From a virus, in UHGV virus genome UHGV-1351569: a DNA stretch of 64,000 bases; one strand, 5' to 3'. Position numbers and translations under genes: made by a program. How positions within the stretch are numbered: position 1 is the first letter of the stretch; each line of letters opens with the position of its first letter. This document shows, piece by piece, positions 30,235 through 53,836 of this stretch. The notes beneath the pieces were generated by a model. That model did no database searches. It had not been told where the DNA came from and saw nothing but the letters and a program-made list of their open reading frames with translations.

Positions 30235-30765
<531 letters not shown>

Positions 30766-30769
30766 AGCT

Positions 30770-30800
30770 GTTTACTTTCTCTTGGAATTGTGATAGTATA
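30770..30800 (+). promoter_or_regulatory. early promoter
   Basis: GTTTAC ... TGATAGTAT. Confidence 0.5.
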
Positions 30801-30853
30801 TTCACAGTTACTTGAATAGATAAATTACTAATTAAAATATTTAAAGGAAACCC

Positions 30854-31327
30854 ATGAAAACATATCAAGAATTTATTACTGAAGCAGCTATTAATTCTCA
30901 AATTATTGCTGAATCTTTTACTGATCTTTTGAAATTTAAAAAAGGTCAAAAAATCACTGCTGTATTGGATGATGGTACAGAAGTTGAGATGGATGTACAG
31001 GGATATAATTATGCAGTAGATGGAAAACTGTATAATAAATCTCATGCTAAATTTGATTCATTTGACGACTTTGTTAATACAGTTGAAGATGAAAAAACTC
31101 GTCGATCCATTGCAACTGGTGATGCTAAGGTTCTTATGGCACATGGTCATGAACGCATTCGCGCTAAACAGAATAAAATGGGTGAAGATAATTTTGCATT
31201 AGTTGGTTATCAATCTGGTAAACAAACTTATGGCTATCAACGTACTGCTACAGTGTATAATAAAAATGGTAAAATCGCTTTCGTGAATAGCAAAGGCTCT
31301 ATTCAGTACGTCAAATCATTCAAATAA
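30854..31327 (+). CDS. internal-protein-like protein with capsid targeting sequence (ipIII position)
   Basis: 157 aa, begins MKTYQEFITEAA; adjacent to e where T4 has ipIII. Confidence 0.6.
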   Translation: MKTYQEFITEAAINSQIIAESFTDLLKFKKGQKITAVLDDGTEVEMDVQGYNYAVDGKLYNKSHAKFDSFDDFVNTVEDEKTRRSIATGDAKVLMAHGHERIRAKQNKMGEDNFALVGYQSGKQTYGYQRTATVYNKNGKIAFVNSKGSIQYVKSFK

Positions 31328-31480
31328 GCAAATAAGAAATATGGGAACAAGCTGGACCTCATGATTCTATGAGGGATTCCCGCCAACCTGTAATAAGGTC
31401 GAGCCTAAGTGCGGTAATGGGTAAATACAGAAATGGACAATTCATGCGCCATGGAATGGCCCAAATTTAGAGAGAATAAA

Positions 31481-32020
31481 ATGAGAACATTTTTAACTGG
31501 TCCTTATCTATCCCTGATGAATGCTTTTACACACCATTCTGATGCTAGAGTAGAAGAAATTTGTAAAAACGATTATATCCCACCATTTGAAGACTTACTA
31601 AAACAATATTGCACACTTCGACTAGATGGTGGACGTCAATCTGGTAAATCAACTGCTGTGACTAACTTTGCTGCTAATTGGCTGTATGATGGTGGAACAG
31701 TTATTGTTCTTTCTAATACTTCAGCTTACGCTAAAATTTCTGCGGGCCACATTAAAAAAGAATTTTCTCGTTATTCTGGCGATGATATTCGATTCCGCTT
31801 ATTTACCGATTCTGTCCGTAGTTTTATCGGTAATAAAGGAAGCAAGTTCAGAGGTTTATCGCTTTCGCGTATTTTGTATATAATTGATGAGCCCGTTAAA
31901 TCTCCTGATATGGATAAAATTTACAATATTCATATTGAAACTGTGCACCACTGTTGCAATAGTAAATGCTGCATTGGTGGTATTACTCGTCCACAGTTTT
32001 TCATAATCGGAATGCAATGA
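31481..32020 (+). CDS. predicted P-loop NTPase
   Basis: Walker A GGRQSGKST and Walker B-like ILYIIDE; start at RBS-supported ATG (ORF extends to 31433). Confidence 0.55.
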   Translation: MRTFLTGPYLSLMNAFTHHSDARVEEICKNDYIPPFEDLLKQYCTLRLDGGRQSGKSTAVTNFAANWLYDGGTVIVLSNTSAYAKISAGHIKKEFSRYSGDDIRFRLFTDSVRSFIGNKGSKFRGLSLSRILYIIDEPVKSPDMDKIYNIHIETVHHCCNSKCCIGGITRPQFFIIGMQ

Positions 32021-32353: not shown

Positions 32354-32716
32354 ATGAAAGCATATCAAATTCTTGAAGGCACACATAAAGGCACTATTTA
32401 TTTTGAAGATGGTATTCAAGCACGAATTATTGTTTCTAAAACCTTTAAAGAGGACTCTTTTGTAGACCCAGAAATTTTCTATGGTTTGCATGCCCGTGAA
32501 ATTGAAATTGAGCAACAGCCTACAGTTAAAATTGAAGGTGGTCAACACCTGAACGTTAACGTTCTGCGTCGTGAAACTCTGGAAGATGCAGTTAAGCATC
32601 CGGAAAAATATCCACAGCTGACCATCCGTGTATCCGGTTATGCAGTTCGCTTTAACTCTCTGACTCCGGAACAGCAGCGCGACGTTATCGCTCGTACCTT
32701 CACTGAGAGTTTGTAA
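32354..32716 (+). CDS. autonomous glycyl radical cofactor (GrcA/YfiD-like) protein
   Basis: C-terminus ...[60 protein letters not shown] carries the RVSGY glycyl-radical motif; RBS GAGG. Confidence 0.8.
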
Positions 32717-32937
32717 TGGCAAAGATAATTATTGAAGGTTCTAAAGATGTGCTAAATGCTTTCGCCGAGTGGTTTAGTAATTCAGGCGAACAGCAATTTA
32801 ATGAAGCATGGAATATGGGTGATATTGATGGAATTTATCCTACGACAGAAATTTCTGTTCAGGGATATGGCATTCATGAACCTATTCGTTTAGTTGAATA
32901 TGATTTAGGTACTGGTGAGGAAGTAAAATATGATTGA
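32716..32937 (+). CDS. hypothetical protein
   Basis: 73-aa ORF, start overlaps upstream stop. Confidence 0.45.
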   Translation: MAKIIIEGSKDVLNAFAEWFSNSGEQQFNEAWNMGDIDGIYPTTEISVQGYGIHEPIRLVEYDLGTGEEVKYD

Positions 32938-33196
32938 AGATATTAAGGGTTATAAGCCACATACTGAAGAGAAAATCGGTAAAGTGAATGCTATCAAAGA
33001 TGCTGAAGTTCGTTTAGGACTTATCTTTGACGCTTTATATGATGAATTTTGGGAAGCACTAGATAATTGCGAAGACTGTGAACTCGCGAAGAATTATGCC
33101 GAAAGCCTTGATCAGTTAACTATTGCTAAAACGAAACTCAAAGAAGCCAGTATGTGGGCTTGCCGTGCAGTGTTCCAACCAGAGGAAAAATACTAA
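32930..33196 (+). CDS. hypothetical protein
   Basis: 88-aa ORF. Confidence 0.45.
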
Positions 33197-41330: not shown

Positions 41331-42300
41331 ATGAAAACTGTAACTATCAATAAGGGTATCTACTTCGGTAAAGAAATCTCTGGAACTTTTGAGCTCTTAG
41401 GCGAATGGTTCCCAGATAATGCTCCGGTAGATGCACAAGGAGATGGTAAAGTTTTTGTTGAAATTGACGGTAAACGTCGCGGTGTTTGGGTTTACAAATC
41501 AGATATTTCATATGATGGTGTAAAAGTTGAAGAAGTTAAAGAATCGTATGAAGATATGAAAACCCGCATTAATAAAAGATTTAATGTTATGGGAATGATG
41601 ACGAATGGTATTATTAATGGAAATATTCGTTCATTGATTATCTCTGGTGCAGCAGGTATTGGTAAAACGTATTCTTTAGATAAAGCTTTAAATAAAGCAA
41701 ATGATATTGGATACATTGAATATAAAAGCATTAATGGTAAAATCTCTGGTATTGGTCTTTATGAGCAGCTTTGGAATAATCGTGAAGAGAATTCTGTCCT
41801 TTTGATTGATGATGTGGATGTTTTCTCTGATATGGACATTCTTAATCTTCTAAAAGCTGCTCTGGACACTGGAGAGACCCGTAAAGTCTGCTGGAGCACG
41901 GCGTCTTCTTACTTAGAAGAAAAAGGCATTGAGCGTGAGTTTGAATTTAAAGGAACGATTGTTTTTATCACAAACGTTGACATTGACCGCGAATTAGACC
42001 GTGGTACTAAACTTGCCCCCACACTTACAAGCATTAGTGTCCCGCTCGGTTTATTTGGATTTAGGCGTTCACACTAATGAAGAAATTATGGTCAGGGTTG
42101 AAGATGTTATTCTTTCAACTGACATGATGCAAAAGCGCGGTCTTTCTGATGAAGAAACTTATAAAGCATTATCATGGATGAAAGTTAATGTTAATCGTTT
42201 ACGCAATGTTTCACTGCGTACTGCTCTTTATCTTGCTGACTTTATTATGACCGACAAAAACGGTTGGGAAGAAATTGCTGAGGTTACTCTTCTGAAATAA
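41331..42300 (+). pseudogene. AAA+ ATPase with reading frame split by a +1 shift near a C5 run (42016-42020)
   Basis: Walker A SGAAGIGKT, Walker B LLIDDVD, sensor-1 FITN in frame 1 (stop at 42075-42077); frame +1 ORF from 42001 continues to 42300; removing one C joins them into about 322 aa. Confidence 0.5.
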
Positions 42301-51044: not shown

Positions 51045-52077
51045 TAATTTAATTCAGGCTCATGTAAAACCGGTCTAAACGGGGAACCTCTCTAGTAGAC
51101 AATCCCGTGCTAAATGTTCTTTTGAACTAAATGCCTAACGACTAACCGTGATGAATGTAGCGGTGTAGAATAGAAGCTAATGCTATTCGAAACGGCCGGC
51201 ATCGAAAGATGAAGATATAGTCTAATCTGCATGGCGACATGCAGCAGTCATCTTGTATAAATAAGATTATCTTATGAATACGAGGTGAAACAATGAAATG
51301 GATAAAAAGACGTTGTACTAAAATAAAAGATAAAGACGCATTTACATACTTAGTTAAGTTTTCTAATGGCGACATTTATATCGGTTATAAAAAAGTTAGA
51401 ACAATTAAAAACAAGCCCACAAACTGGAAAACTTACACAACGTCATCTAAGTATATAAATGAACGCTTAAAAACTGATACACCTACTAAATGGATAATTT
51501 TAAAAACATTTGATAGTTATAAAGACGCATTAAAACATGAAGAAGAGGTCATACGTAAATATTTTTATAGCAAAAAATGTTTAAATAAATCCATAGGCGG
51601 TAAAAAGTTTTATAAGCATCCGGATACTGAAGAACATATTCAAAAATTAAGAGATGCTCATAAGGGTAAAGTGTTATCCGAATCTCATAAAAACAATATA
51701 AAATCTTCTGTAGCTGAATATTATGCTAAAAACGGAAGATCTAAGGAACATGTGCAAAATAATATCAATAGTCGAAAAAGTAAAAAACAAGTATCGATAA
51801 AGCTTAAAAATAAAACTTTTAGAAGTTTTAAAAAAGCGGCGGAATATTTAAATTGCACTGAAAGTGAAGTCGAAACTCATCCTCTTGTTTTGAGTATTAA
51901 GACTACTATTCATAAAGTTCCTGAATATGTGGTTGTTGACGGTATTAAGTATACGTCTTATATAGAAGCAGCTAAAGCGCTAAATTTTCATCCTAGCACT
52001 ATAAAAGAACGTTGCGTATCTATGGACTATCCAAATTTTGTTGTTTCATATAAACGGGCATGAATTTGCGACTCATG
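51045..52077 (+). mobile_element. group I self-splicing intron in nrdD carrying a homing endonuclease ORF (boundaries +/-10 nt)
   Basis: about 1.03 kb interrupts nrdD between ...DAFQAYE and EYNDEVNTLF...; contains a free-standing ORF. Confidence 0.7.
51293..52063 (+). CDS. intron-encoded homing endonuclease I-TevII-like
   Basis: 256-aa basic ORF inside the nrdD intron with degenerate GIY-YIG-like N-terminus (YLVKFSNGDIYIGYKK). Confidence 0.75.
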   Translation: MKWIKRRCTKIKDKDAFTYLVKFSNGDIYIGYKKVRTIKNKPTNWKTYTTSSKYINERLKTDTPTKWIILKTFDSYKDALKHEEEVIRKYFYSKKCLNKSIGGKKFYKHPDTEEHIQKLRDAHKGKVLSESHKNNIKSSVAEYYAKNGRSKEHVQNNINSRKSKKQVSIKLKNKTFRSFKKAAEYLNCTESEVETHPLVLSIKTTIHKVPEYVVVDGIKYTSYIEAAKALNFHPSTIKERCVSMDYPNFVVSYKRA

Positions 52078-53369
52078 CCGAATATAATGATGAAGTAAAT
52101 ACACTTTTCAGCTCTAATGGACAAACGCCTTTTGTAACAATTACGTTTGGTACGGGAACTGACTGGACTGAACGAATGATTCAGAAAGCAATTCTGAAAA
52201 ATCGTATTAAAGGTCTTGGTCGCGATGGGATAACTCCTATTTTCCCTAAGCTTGTTATGTTCGTTGAAGAAGGTGTTAATCTTTATAAAGATGACCCGAA
52301 CTATGATATTAAACAGCTTGCTCTAGAGTGCGCAAGCAAAAGAATGTATCCTGACATCATTTCGGCTAAGAACAATAAAGCTATCACCGGTTCATCTATT
52401 CCTGTTTCTCCAATGGGTTGCCGCAGTTTCTTGAGCGTATGGAAAGATTCGACTGGTAATGAAATTCTTGATGGACGTAATAATCTTGGCGTTGTAACAC
52501 TGAATCTTCCTCGCATCGCGTTAGATTCTTATATTGGAACACAGTTCAATGAACAGAAATTTGCCGAATTGTTCAATGAACGAATGGATTTATGTTTTGA
52601 AGCTTTGATGTGTAGAATTAGTTCCTTAAAAGGAGTTAAAGCGACTGTTGCTCCTATTCTTTATCAAGAAGGTGCATTCGGGGTTCGTCTTAAACCAGAT
52701 GACGACATAATTGAGTTATTTAAAAACGGTAGAAGTTCAGTGTCTTTGGGATACATTGGTATTCACGAATTGAATATTCTTGTCGGTCGTGATATTGGGC
52801 AGGAAATTTTGACTAAAATGAATGCTCATCTTAAGCAGTGGACTGAAAGAACCGGTTTTGCTTTTAGTTTGTATTCTACACCTGCTGAAAACCTGTGCTA
52901 TCGCTTCTGTAAACTTGATACCGAAAAATATGGAAGTGTAAAGGATGTTACTGATAAAGGCTGGTACACTAACAGTTTCCATGTTTCAGTAGAAGAAAAT
53001 ATCACTCCGTTTGAAAAGATTTCTCGTGAAGCGCCATATCATTTCATTGCGACAGGTGGTCACATTTCTTATGTTGAACTTCCTGATATGAAAAATAACT
53101 TAAAAGGTCTTGAGGCTGTATGGGATTATGCTGCACAACATTTAGATTATTTTGGCGTTAACATGCCAGTAGATAAATGTTTTACGTGTGGAAGTACCCA
53201 TGAAATGACTCCTACTGAAAACGGGTTTGTTTGTTCTATTTGTGGAGAAACTGATCCTAAAAAGATGAACACAATAAGAAGAACTTGTGGTTATTTGGGA
53301 AATCCGAACGAACGTGGATTTAATCTTGGCAAAAATAAAGAAATCATGCATAGGGTTAAACACCAATGA
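52078..53369 (+). CDS. nrdD: anaerobic ribonucleotide reductase NrdD, exon 2 (5' boundary approximate)
   Basis: C-terminal glycyl radical motif RRTCGYLG and zinc ribbon CFTCGS...CSICG. Confidence 0.8.
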
Positions 53370-53836
53370 ATTATGATAGATTTTATCCTTGCGATTTTGT
53401 GAATGGCCCTGGATGCAGGGTCGTTCTTTTCGTTACAGGTTGTTTGCATAAATGTGAAGGGTGTTATAATAAATCAACATGGAATGCTAGAAATGGCGTT
53501 CCATTCACTGGTGAAACACTAGAACAATTAATTGAATGTTTGAATAATGATTATATAGAAGGATTAACTATAACTGGAGGTGACCCTCTTTATCCTGATA
53601 ACCGAGATGTTATTCATTGCATTGTTCAAACAGTAAAAAATCTTTATCCGAATAAAAGCATTTGGTTGTGGACCGGATATAAGTTTGAGGATATTAAACA
53701 ACTAGAAATGCTTAAATATGTTGATGTTATTATTGATGGGAAGTATGAGAAAAATCTTCCGACCAAAAAGCTGTGGCGAGGATCAGATAATCAGCGACTT
53801 TGGTCAAATACCGATGGGGTGTGGAAACATGATTAA
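53366..53836 (+). CDS. nrdG: anaerobic RNR activating enzyme NrdG (radical SAM)
   Basis: 156 aa, CxxxCxxC (CLHKCEGC) cluster. Confidence 0.9.
   Translation: MNYDRFYPCDFVNGPGCRVVLFVTGCLHKCEGCYNKSTWNARNGVPFTGETLEQLIECLNNDYIEGLTITGGDPLYPDNRDVIHCIVQTVKNLYPNKSIWLWTGYKFEDIKQLEMLKYVDVIIDGKYEKNLPTKKLWRGSDNQRLWSNTDGVWKHD

Follow-up and report, generated by a model that had tools for sequence, protein, structure and literature searches.

Two proteins, E. coli YfiD/GrcA and Y06I of bacteriophage T4, are the only biochemically validated spare parts for pyruvate formate-lyase (PFL) (PMC8683613). In both cases the PFL-activating enzyme puts in the glycyl radical, after which the protein binds PFL that has been cleaved by oxygen and activity is restored (PMC8683613); for T4 Y06I, the original report of PFL rescue is Wagner et al. 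2001 (BBRC 285:456), as cited in PMC8683613. Residues 61-127 of YfiD constitute a structured domain duplicating PFL 693-759, residues 1-60 are disordered and help binding, and the N-half, which makes binding and activation about fourfold better, is dispensable for catalysis (PMC8683613). The mechanism requires that the domain duplicate the C-terminal strand, loop, and helix of the client itself (PMC8683613). The phage gene, vs.6, was present in six of six T4-like genomes compared (PMC1524935), and a review of T4-related genomes found few clues on the route of lateral transfer into these phages (PMC2993671).

Here, we analyzed vs.6 in UHGV virus genome UHGV-1351569, using a 64,000-nucleotide stretch that we refer to as the window. 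Knowledge of the gene and of its biochemistry dates back to 2001, hence its annotation adds nothing new; the subject of this work is its mosaic structure. We consider it very probable that vs.6 encodes a PFL spare part and that its 3' half is a patch of E. coli grcA that replaced part of an older homologue. A literature search returned no paper describing the mosaic at nucleotide level or its Klebsiella counterpart, presented below, though an earlier mention may exist. In sum, vs.6 is a known gene to which a well-resolved, modestly interesting evolutionary footnote can be added.

Among the auxiliary metabolic genes that virulent phages have taken from hosts, such as cyanophage psbA, exchange of gene segments with the host copies has been described. 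Like psbA, vs.6 duplicates a host gene of metabolic maintenance and bears signs of segmental exchange with the host. Unlike psbA, it is carried by a cytosine-modifying, host-DNA-destroying T-even phage, its patch spans only about 170 bp, and it encodes a part for repairing a host enzyme, not a core enzyme subunit.

The vs.6 protein and its client enzyme

The open reading frame (ORF) at 32354-32716 is the T-even gene vs.6, named Y06I in T4. It shares 98 to 99% of its nucleotides with the vs.6 genes of many T-even phages, and the protein differs from that of T4 at a single residue in the N-half (Q54, P54 in T4). The first-pass annotation, made from the sequence alone, had called a GrcA/YfiD-type gene at this position, and the profile and structure matches agreed. 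Pfam Gly_radical matched residues 60-101 only, through the last 42 model positions (2.5e-18), and E. coli GrcA (PDB 6OWR) aligned with residues 22-120 (9e-42). PHROG 1209, the T4-like vs.6 group, covered the protein from 1 to 120 (profile 1-121 of 121, 5.7e-63). In its architecture, vs.6 resembles GrcA in being a small stand-alone protein (about 14 kDa class) that combines an N-half with a glycyl-radical domain, without the catalytic barrel. The RefSeq name of the orthologue in phage Lutter (locus L184) is "autonomous glycyl radical cofactor GrcA". Other names in circulation are less apt: PHROGs v4 labels phrog_1209 "unknown function" despite the 2001 biochemistry on its T4 member, and many GenBank phage records give vs.6 as "hypothetical protein", "pyruvate formate-lyase", or "2-ketobutyrate formate-lyase".

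The last ~60 codons had been recognized in the first-pass annotation as the enterobacterial GrcA C-terminus. Residues 61-120 of vs.6 are in fact identical to E. coli GrcA 68-127 (PDB 6OWR), that is, the phage protein contains the host spare part's own domain, residue for residue. Residues 58-120 also aligned with PFL 697-759 over their whole length (E 5e-26), duplicating the PFL C-terminus together with its RVSGYAV loop. Phage and host proteins share the plan of an N-half (disordered in YfiD) followed by the glycyl-radical domain, and their N-halves are homologous. Unlike E. coli GrcA, vs.6 is seven residues shorter, and its N-half is only about 29 to 35% identical to that of the host; this diverged N-half could alter the binding or activation step.

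PFL rescue, one of two roles that the first-pass annotation suggested, is the activity reported for T4 Y06I in the 2001 work cited by PMC8683613. By analogy, the window protein, one N-half residue removed from Y06I, very likely has the same role. Activated by the host PFL-activating enzyme, vs.6 would replace the C-terminal piece of PFL lost to oxygen cleavage at Gly734, and host fermentative acetyl-CoA and ATP production would thereby be sustained during microaerobic infection.

The other suggested role, with the phage's own oxygen-cleaved glycyl-radical enzyme NrdD as main client in place of host PFL, appears highly unlikely. NrdD and its partner NrdG are both encoded in the window, as the first-pass annotation had stated (the C-terminal part of NrdD at 52038-53369, NrdG at 53366-53836); a role of vs.6 in nucleotide metabolism has been speculated upon (PMC1524935), and spare parts for other glycyl-radical enzymes have been deemed conceivable (PMC8683613). 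The C-terminus of the window NrdD, however, has a different motif, RRTCGYLGNP, and BLASTP of vs.6 against NrdD gave an E value of 4.1 with the glycine loop unaligned, against the PFL match along all of residues 58-120 and the identity to host GrcA from residue 61 onward. Since a spare part must duplicate the C-terminal elements of its client and the NrdD C-terminus has no BLASTP similarity to vs.6, rescue of NrdD is not to be expected. The nrdD gene itself is seemingly interrupted: an ORF with SegE-type GIY-YIG and NUMOD1 domains (51293-52063, + strand) lies directly upstream of 52038-53369 and overlaps it, and the latter covers the NRDD model from position 145 to 562 only, probably reflecting an intron or homing-endonuclease arrangement as in T4.

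A bounded E. coli-like tract in vs.6

When vs.6 was searched against 5,426 complete E. coli genomes, a check akin to one advised in the first-pass annotation, blastn aligned query bases 179-363 only, at 97.3% identity and with grcA in every genome, and the 5' half returned no match. When all 64 kb were compared with these genomes by megablast, the 32532-32706 tract was the sole match, with no other E. coli-like segment in the window. Pairwise comparison with E. coli grcA gave 46.6% identity over 32354-32531, 166 of 167 matching positions over 32532-32698, and 14 of 18 in the tail at 32699-32716. A two-breakpoint maximum chi-square scan delimited the tract at 32532-32706, where 2 of 175 positions differed compared with 98 of 188 in the rest of the coding sequence (chi2 = 118). 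The tract's changes relative to E. coli are CCA at codon 87 and TTC at codon 116. The final 61 codons were 96.7% identical to E. coli grcA in the window gene and 98.4% in T4; over a 171-nt patch core, identity was 98.8% and 100%, respectively, and 97.7% and 98.8% against Escherichia sp.

T4 Vs.6 is the nearest described relative, sharing with the window gene the locus (vs.7-vs.6-vs.5-vs.4), the length of 120 residues, and the E. coli-derived patch. Just 7 of 363 nucleotides separate the two genes (four in the first 180 nt, two in the patch, and one in the tail). The host-identical tract of T4 is three codons longer, forming an exact shared run of 178 nt with E. coli grcA, whereas codon 118 of the window gene is in the phage state.

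The 5' breakpoint falls between AAA ATT and GAA GGT GG and the 3' breakpoint between CGT ACC TTT ACT and GA, both within sequence blocks conserved across nearly all phages and hosts. Between them, the tract corresponds to the structured GrcA domain, residues 61-127 in the nuclear magnetic resonance structure. The first-pass annotation had treated the 3' half as host-like throughout, a description that holds for 32532-32706 and fails for the last 2-5 codons. The tail GAG AGT (C/T)T(A/G) is also found in Mosigvirus, Pseudotevenvirus, and Slopekvirus. Among close relatives the tail is itself a mosaic, with the E. coli state at codon 118 in T4 (GAA), at codon 120 in locus L105 (CTG), and at codon 119 in locus L107 (AGC), a pattern that is compatible with, and weakly suggestive of, tracts ending at different points.

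For codon usage, the E. coli table drew on 31 genes near grcA and the phage table on 69 long window ORFs. Averaged as log2(E. coli/phage), codon preference was -0.26 over codons 1-59 and +0.376 over codons 60-115, and GC content at third codon positions (GC3) rose from 0.20 in the 5' half to 0.41 in the tract. Phage 56-codon windows had a mean of -0.395 (standard deviation 0.165), placing the tract at z = 4.7, and none of 12,773 such windows reached its value; the mean for E. coli comparison windows was +0.50. The codon switch described in the first-pass annotation is therefore real, although it begins at 32532 rather than at about 32537 and includes five CTG codons rather than four. Elsewhere in the window, the second most E. 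coli-like codon stretch lies at about codon 180 (log-likelihood ratio +0.14) of an ORF at 41331-42077 (+ strand), which encodes an AAA/STAND-like NTPase (weak Pfam matches) and had no nucleotide match in the 5,426 E. coli genomes by megablast.

Codon convergence without any DNA transfer, driven by protein constraint and by translation-efficiency selection toward a highly expressed host gene, would fit the extreme conservation of the C-terminal domain as protein in all phages and hosts, and several tract codons are indeed E. coli-preferred. Synonymous sites (same-residue codons only, Met and Trp excluded) leave this explanation with a negligible probability. The window gene has the same synonymous codon as E. 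coli at 55 of 60 sites and T4 at 58 of 60 (P about 8e-9 and 6e-12, respectively). Phage lineages lacking the patch, under equal protein constraint, share only about 50 to 60% of synonymous codons with E. coli, and E. coli itself shares 47 of 61 with the nearest other bacterial genus. The matching codons include the phage-preferred GCA, GTA, CAA, ACT, and GTT; no convergence is seen in the E. coli phage RB49 or in T5-like phages; and Klebsiella phages take the synonymous choices of Klebsiella. Nucleotide identity thus far exceeds what protein constraint would give. The first-pass annotation had staked its claim on such an excess and on a quantifiable codon break, both of which were found.

Escherichia sequences (E. 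coli and Escherichia sp.) were 96 to 100% identical to the vs.6 3' block. Citrobacter, the nearest genus thereafter, reached about 91%. As E. coli and Citrobacter are themselves only 92% identical, the patch is nearer to E. coli than is any other bacterial genus. A neighbor-joining (NJ) tree was built for the 171-nt patch in 105 sequences; T-even phages and Escherichia formed one clade with 98% bootstrap support (93% with third positions only), and phage monophyly was recovered in none of the bootstraps. On this evidence, the donor of the patch is Escherichia. Near-identity alone gives no direction, and a transfer in reverse, whereby a T-even phage donated the grcA 3' half to E. coli, would produce it equally. 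In composition, however, the tract stands apart from the phage and falls among E. coli genes, which argues for movement from host to phage. Furthermore, grcA occurs in all 5,426 E. coli genomes (between ung and eamB in an example strain), its 3' block diverges ordinarily from those of other Enterobacterales (88 to 92%), and Klebsiella phages match Klebsiella instead. We regard reverse transfer as extremely improbable.

Between Tequatrovirus-type and Mosigvirus-type genes, 18 to 22 of 180 N-half positions differ, compared with 0 to 5 of 171 in the patch (Fisher p 0.002-0.003), suggesting that the patch is younger than the split between them. Differences of the patch from E. coli are mostly private single changes, with those at codons 73 and 94 recurring in more than one phage. 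The patch would have been either acquired more than once or passed between Tequatrovirus and Mosigvirus. An assembly or contamination artefact was considered and rejected: the patch is in frame, has phage-specific sequence at both ends, carries private mutations, and is shared by independent T-even genomes numbering in the hundreds, T4 and T2 among them.

An older phage homologue and a second donor

The first-pass annotation proposed a captured host fragment fused to a phage-type N-terminus. The captured part stands, as the 3' half is Escherichia-derived DNA, and the fusion does not, since the N-half is a diverged GrcA N-half. Under illegitimate capture, a 3' fragment of host grcA would have been joined in frame to an unrelated phage N-terminal sequence, yielding a new chimera; the sharp 5' boundary at 32532, with just 47% nucleotide identity upstream, and the shift from phage-like to host-like codons across it are what such an event would leave. 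Yet the N-halves of vs.6 and GrcA aligned on their own (BLASTP, 35% over 40 residues, E 5e-6), and a profile of 11 phage N-halves aligned with one of 10 host N-halves from end to end (hhalign, probability 94.8%, E 5.4e-8). Moreover, full-length orthologues with 3' halves that are not host-like exist in many phage lineages. By tblastn, 1,589 phage records contained a vs.6 homologue, among them records of T5-like, jumbo Yersinia, Aeromonas, and Vibrio phages. The 3' block of Karamvirus, Krischvirus, Slopekvirus, Pseudotevenvirus, Biquartavirus, Aeromonas, and T5-like phages was only 72 to 85% identical to any host grcA in a panel of roughly 85 genes, and the longest exact run with host grcA in these unpatched lineages was 17 to 35 nt, compared with 178 nt in T4. 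The 3' boundary also lies within the ORF and leaves in place a tail common to other phage genera, which indicates that the patch replaced part of a pre-existing full-length homologue. Finally, Jiaodavirus vs.6 has the same boundaries with another donor, as homology-guided crossovers predict and random capture does not. Altogether, a fusion origin is very improbable.

Replacement within an existing homologue would have proceeded by the copying of a host patch of about 170 to 175 bp (32532-32706) from chromosomal E. coli grcA into the diverged phage gene through homologous recombination (gene conversion). The crossovers would be situated in the two conserved microhomology blocks flanking the structured domain, GAA GGT GG on the 5' side and CGT ACC TTT ACT GA on the 3' side. 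As similarity of about 80 to 85% is confined to the constrained domain, crossovers would be possible only at the domain edges, and the breakpoint pattern is the one predicted for homologous (homeologous) recombination into an existing homologue. In Karamvirus, the 3' blocks of CC31 (L089) and EnC07 (L098), taken as the last 57 codons before the tail, differ at 21 of 171 positions and the N-halves at 11 of 180 (Fisher p 0.06). Identity of either 3' block to any sampled host was 0.83 or less, which hints at more exchange, from unsampled donors or from phage to phage.

Jiaodaviruses, T4-like phages of Klebsiella and Salmonella exemplified by KpV477 and PSE-D1, carry an orthologous vs.6 with a host-like 3' block whose boundaries are identical to those of T-even phages. 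Their N-half is 75% identical to that of the window gene (46 of 180 positions differ). Unlike the window gene, the patch is of Klebsiella type: GC3 is 0.22 to 0.24 in the N-half and 0.60 to 0.63 in the 3' block, and the domain has the LLDAVEH variant shared with Klebsiella where E. coli has LEDAVKH. With Klebsiella grcA DNA obtained through a protein search and contig look-ups, Klebsiella proved closest to the patch over 171 nt (96.5% for PSE-D1 and 93.6% for KpV477), and two sites at which KpV477 and PSE-D1 differ (ACC/ACT and GCT/GCC) coincide with differences among the sampled Klebsiella alleles. Blastn of Klebsiella grcA against all phage records returned 60 records at 95 to 99% and 82 at 90 to 95%; the best among the matches listed were Klebsiella phages of about 166 to 168 kb, whose alignments all run from query base 199 or 202 to base 374. 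The Klebsiella-like patch of Jiaodavirus is separate from the E. coli patch and indicates a second event. Judged from these sequences, patching has recurred at least twice and is not general.

Whether recurrent homology-guided copying re-matches the glycyl-radical domain to the current host, with E. coli-type patches in Tequatrovirus and Mosigvirus and Klebsiella-type patches in Jiaodavirus, favored via the host-specific variant, is a more tentative matter, and we lean somewhat against it. If it were true, vs.6 would show, in nature, that recombination with host chromosomes still occurs in virulent phages that modify their cytosine and degrade host DNA, and the gene would be usable as a marker of recent host association.

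Several observations weigh against the interpretation of vs.6 as a patched PFL spare part, or narrow it. NCBIfam TIGR04365 "spare_glycyl" (InterPro IPR011140) matched residues 20-120 (profile 25-126 of 126, E 1.2e-45) at 154.9 bits, below the equivalog cutoff of 170 bits. The shortfall is due to the diverged N-half, and by this measure vs.6 is a diverged relative, not a strict equivalog, though the T4 version is functional. The clade of Jiaodavirus and Klebsiella, although present in the best NJ tree, had a bootstrap of only 60% on 171 sites. A blastn search of 50,697 phage records with S. enterica grcA returned no Salmonella-like patch above 95% and just two records at 90 to 95%, so host tracking is not general. 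A single acquisition followed by spread from phage to phage is inseparable from independent conversions in Tequatrovirus and Mosigvirus. In addition, we infer the recombination mechanism, along with its timing and any selective advantage of host matching, from the sequence pattern. T-even phages degrade cytosine-containing host DNA and themselves carry hydroxymethylcytosine, hence the uptake of host sequence would need a copying step, for example synthesis-dependent repair.

With these reservations, vs.6 offers a clean, precisely bounded transfer from host to virulent phage, apparently by homologous replacement, with the donor identified to genus and a further instance, from another donor but within the same boundaries, in a sister genus. 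The locus is a natural and experimentally tractable example of lateral transfer into T4-related phages, and the 178 nt of perfect homology between T4 and E. coli permit the frequency of host-to-phage conversion to be measured directly in the laboratory.

The searches also returned grcA-like sequences in other contexts. Genome-contig loci L026 and L034 comprise a full-length grcA on a 275-kb replicon labelled as a plasmid in Klebsiella sp. WOUb02 and a grcA of enterobacterial type, its protein 91% identical to that of E. coli, in an assembly labelled Vagococcus sp. WN89Y, probably through contamination or mislabelling. Among IMG/VR loci classed as viral, L173-L183 are the 3' ends of full-length PFL-type genes (MHGRDQKGAVASLTSVAKLPF...). 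Locus L132 was rejected as a phage grcA, being 91% identical to Yersinia grcA and of bacterial appearance on its viral-classed contig. These IMG/VR loci are probably bacterial or prophage-flanking DNA.

The vs.6 locus

The window is a T-even (Tequatrovirus-type) segment that includes nudE, lysozyme gene e (30271-30765), regB, vs.1, vs, and the tk.4 macro-domain gene, all on the + strand. The neighbors of vs.6 match vs.7 (phrog_2049) and vs.5 (phrog_1986), in the same gene order as in phages PhAPEC2 and Lutter. Features of the locus are compiled below.

Features of the vs.6 locus in the 64,000-nucleotide window
Feature	Position	Strand	Basis
vs.6 / Y06I coding sequence, 120 residues, autonomous glycyl radical cofactor (GrcA/YfiD homologue)	32354..32716	+	ORF; Pfam Gly_radical; PDB 6OWR; T-even vs.6 identity
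Promoter-like sigma-70-type site upstream of vs.7	31935..31963	+	TTGAAA-17-AATAGT with TG; consensus scan
Shine-Dalgarno GAGG, 5 nt before the vs.6 ATG, overlapping the vs.7 stop codon	32345..32348	+	Sequence reading
Glycyl-radical motif RVSGYAV; radical glycine is codon 95 (32636-32638), corresponding to PFL Gly734	32627..32647	+	Motif search; PFL/GrcA alignment; PMC8683613
vs.6 N-half	32354..32531	+	46.6% nucleotide identity to E. coli grcA; phage-like codons; hhalign to host N-halves
Host-derived tract from E. coli grcA, structured glycyl-radical domain (GrcA residues 68 to about 125)	32532..32706	+	Chi-square scan; megablast; codon usage; NJ tree
Phage-type 3' tail GAG AGT TTG TAA, retained	32707..32716	+	Three synonymous differences from E. 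coli GAA AGC CTG

The promoter-like site is probably the promoter of a vs.7-vs.6-vs.5-vs.4 transcription unit, and the Lutter RefSeq record has a promoter annotated at the equivalent position upstream of vs.7 (locus 2782-2809 of L184). Control of the host grcA gene is exerted by FNR/ArcA. Unlike E. coli GrcA, the phage protein would be expressed from this predicted promoter and not under host grcA control; with a promoter of early type, provision of the spare part in oxygen-exposed fermenting cells would not depend on host gene expression. At the 3' end, the vs.6 stop overlaps the vs.5 start in TAATG at 32714-32718 (vs.5 ATG from 32716). In phage Matisse, a ribosome-binding site is annotated at the codon equivalent to the vs.6 tail, and GAGAG within the tail is possibly the Shine-Dalgarno sequence for vs.5.

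Upstream, the internal-protein/denV region (window 30765-32020) seems to differ between the window phage and its close relative Lutter, in which denV lies between lysozyme e and vs.8; the endonuclease V (denV) motifs AEYRELPR and MAEYRE were absent from the six-frame translation of the whole window. Two genes past vs.6, in the position of T4 vs.4, an 88-residue ORF (32930-33196, + strand) matches the Pfam Acb2/Tad1 hairpin domain (5.5e-20), an anti-CBASS/anti-Thoeris nucleotide-sponge fold.

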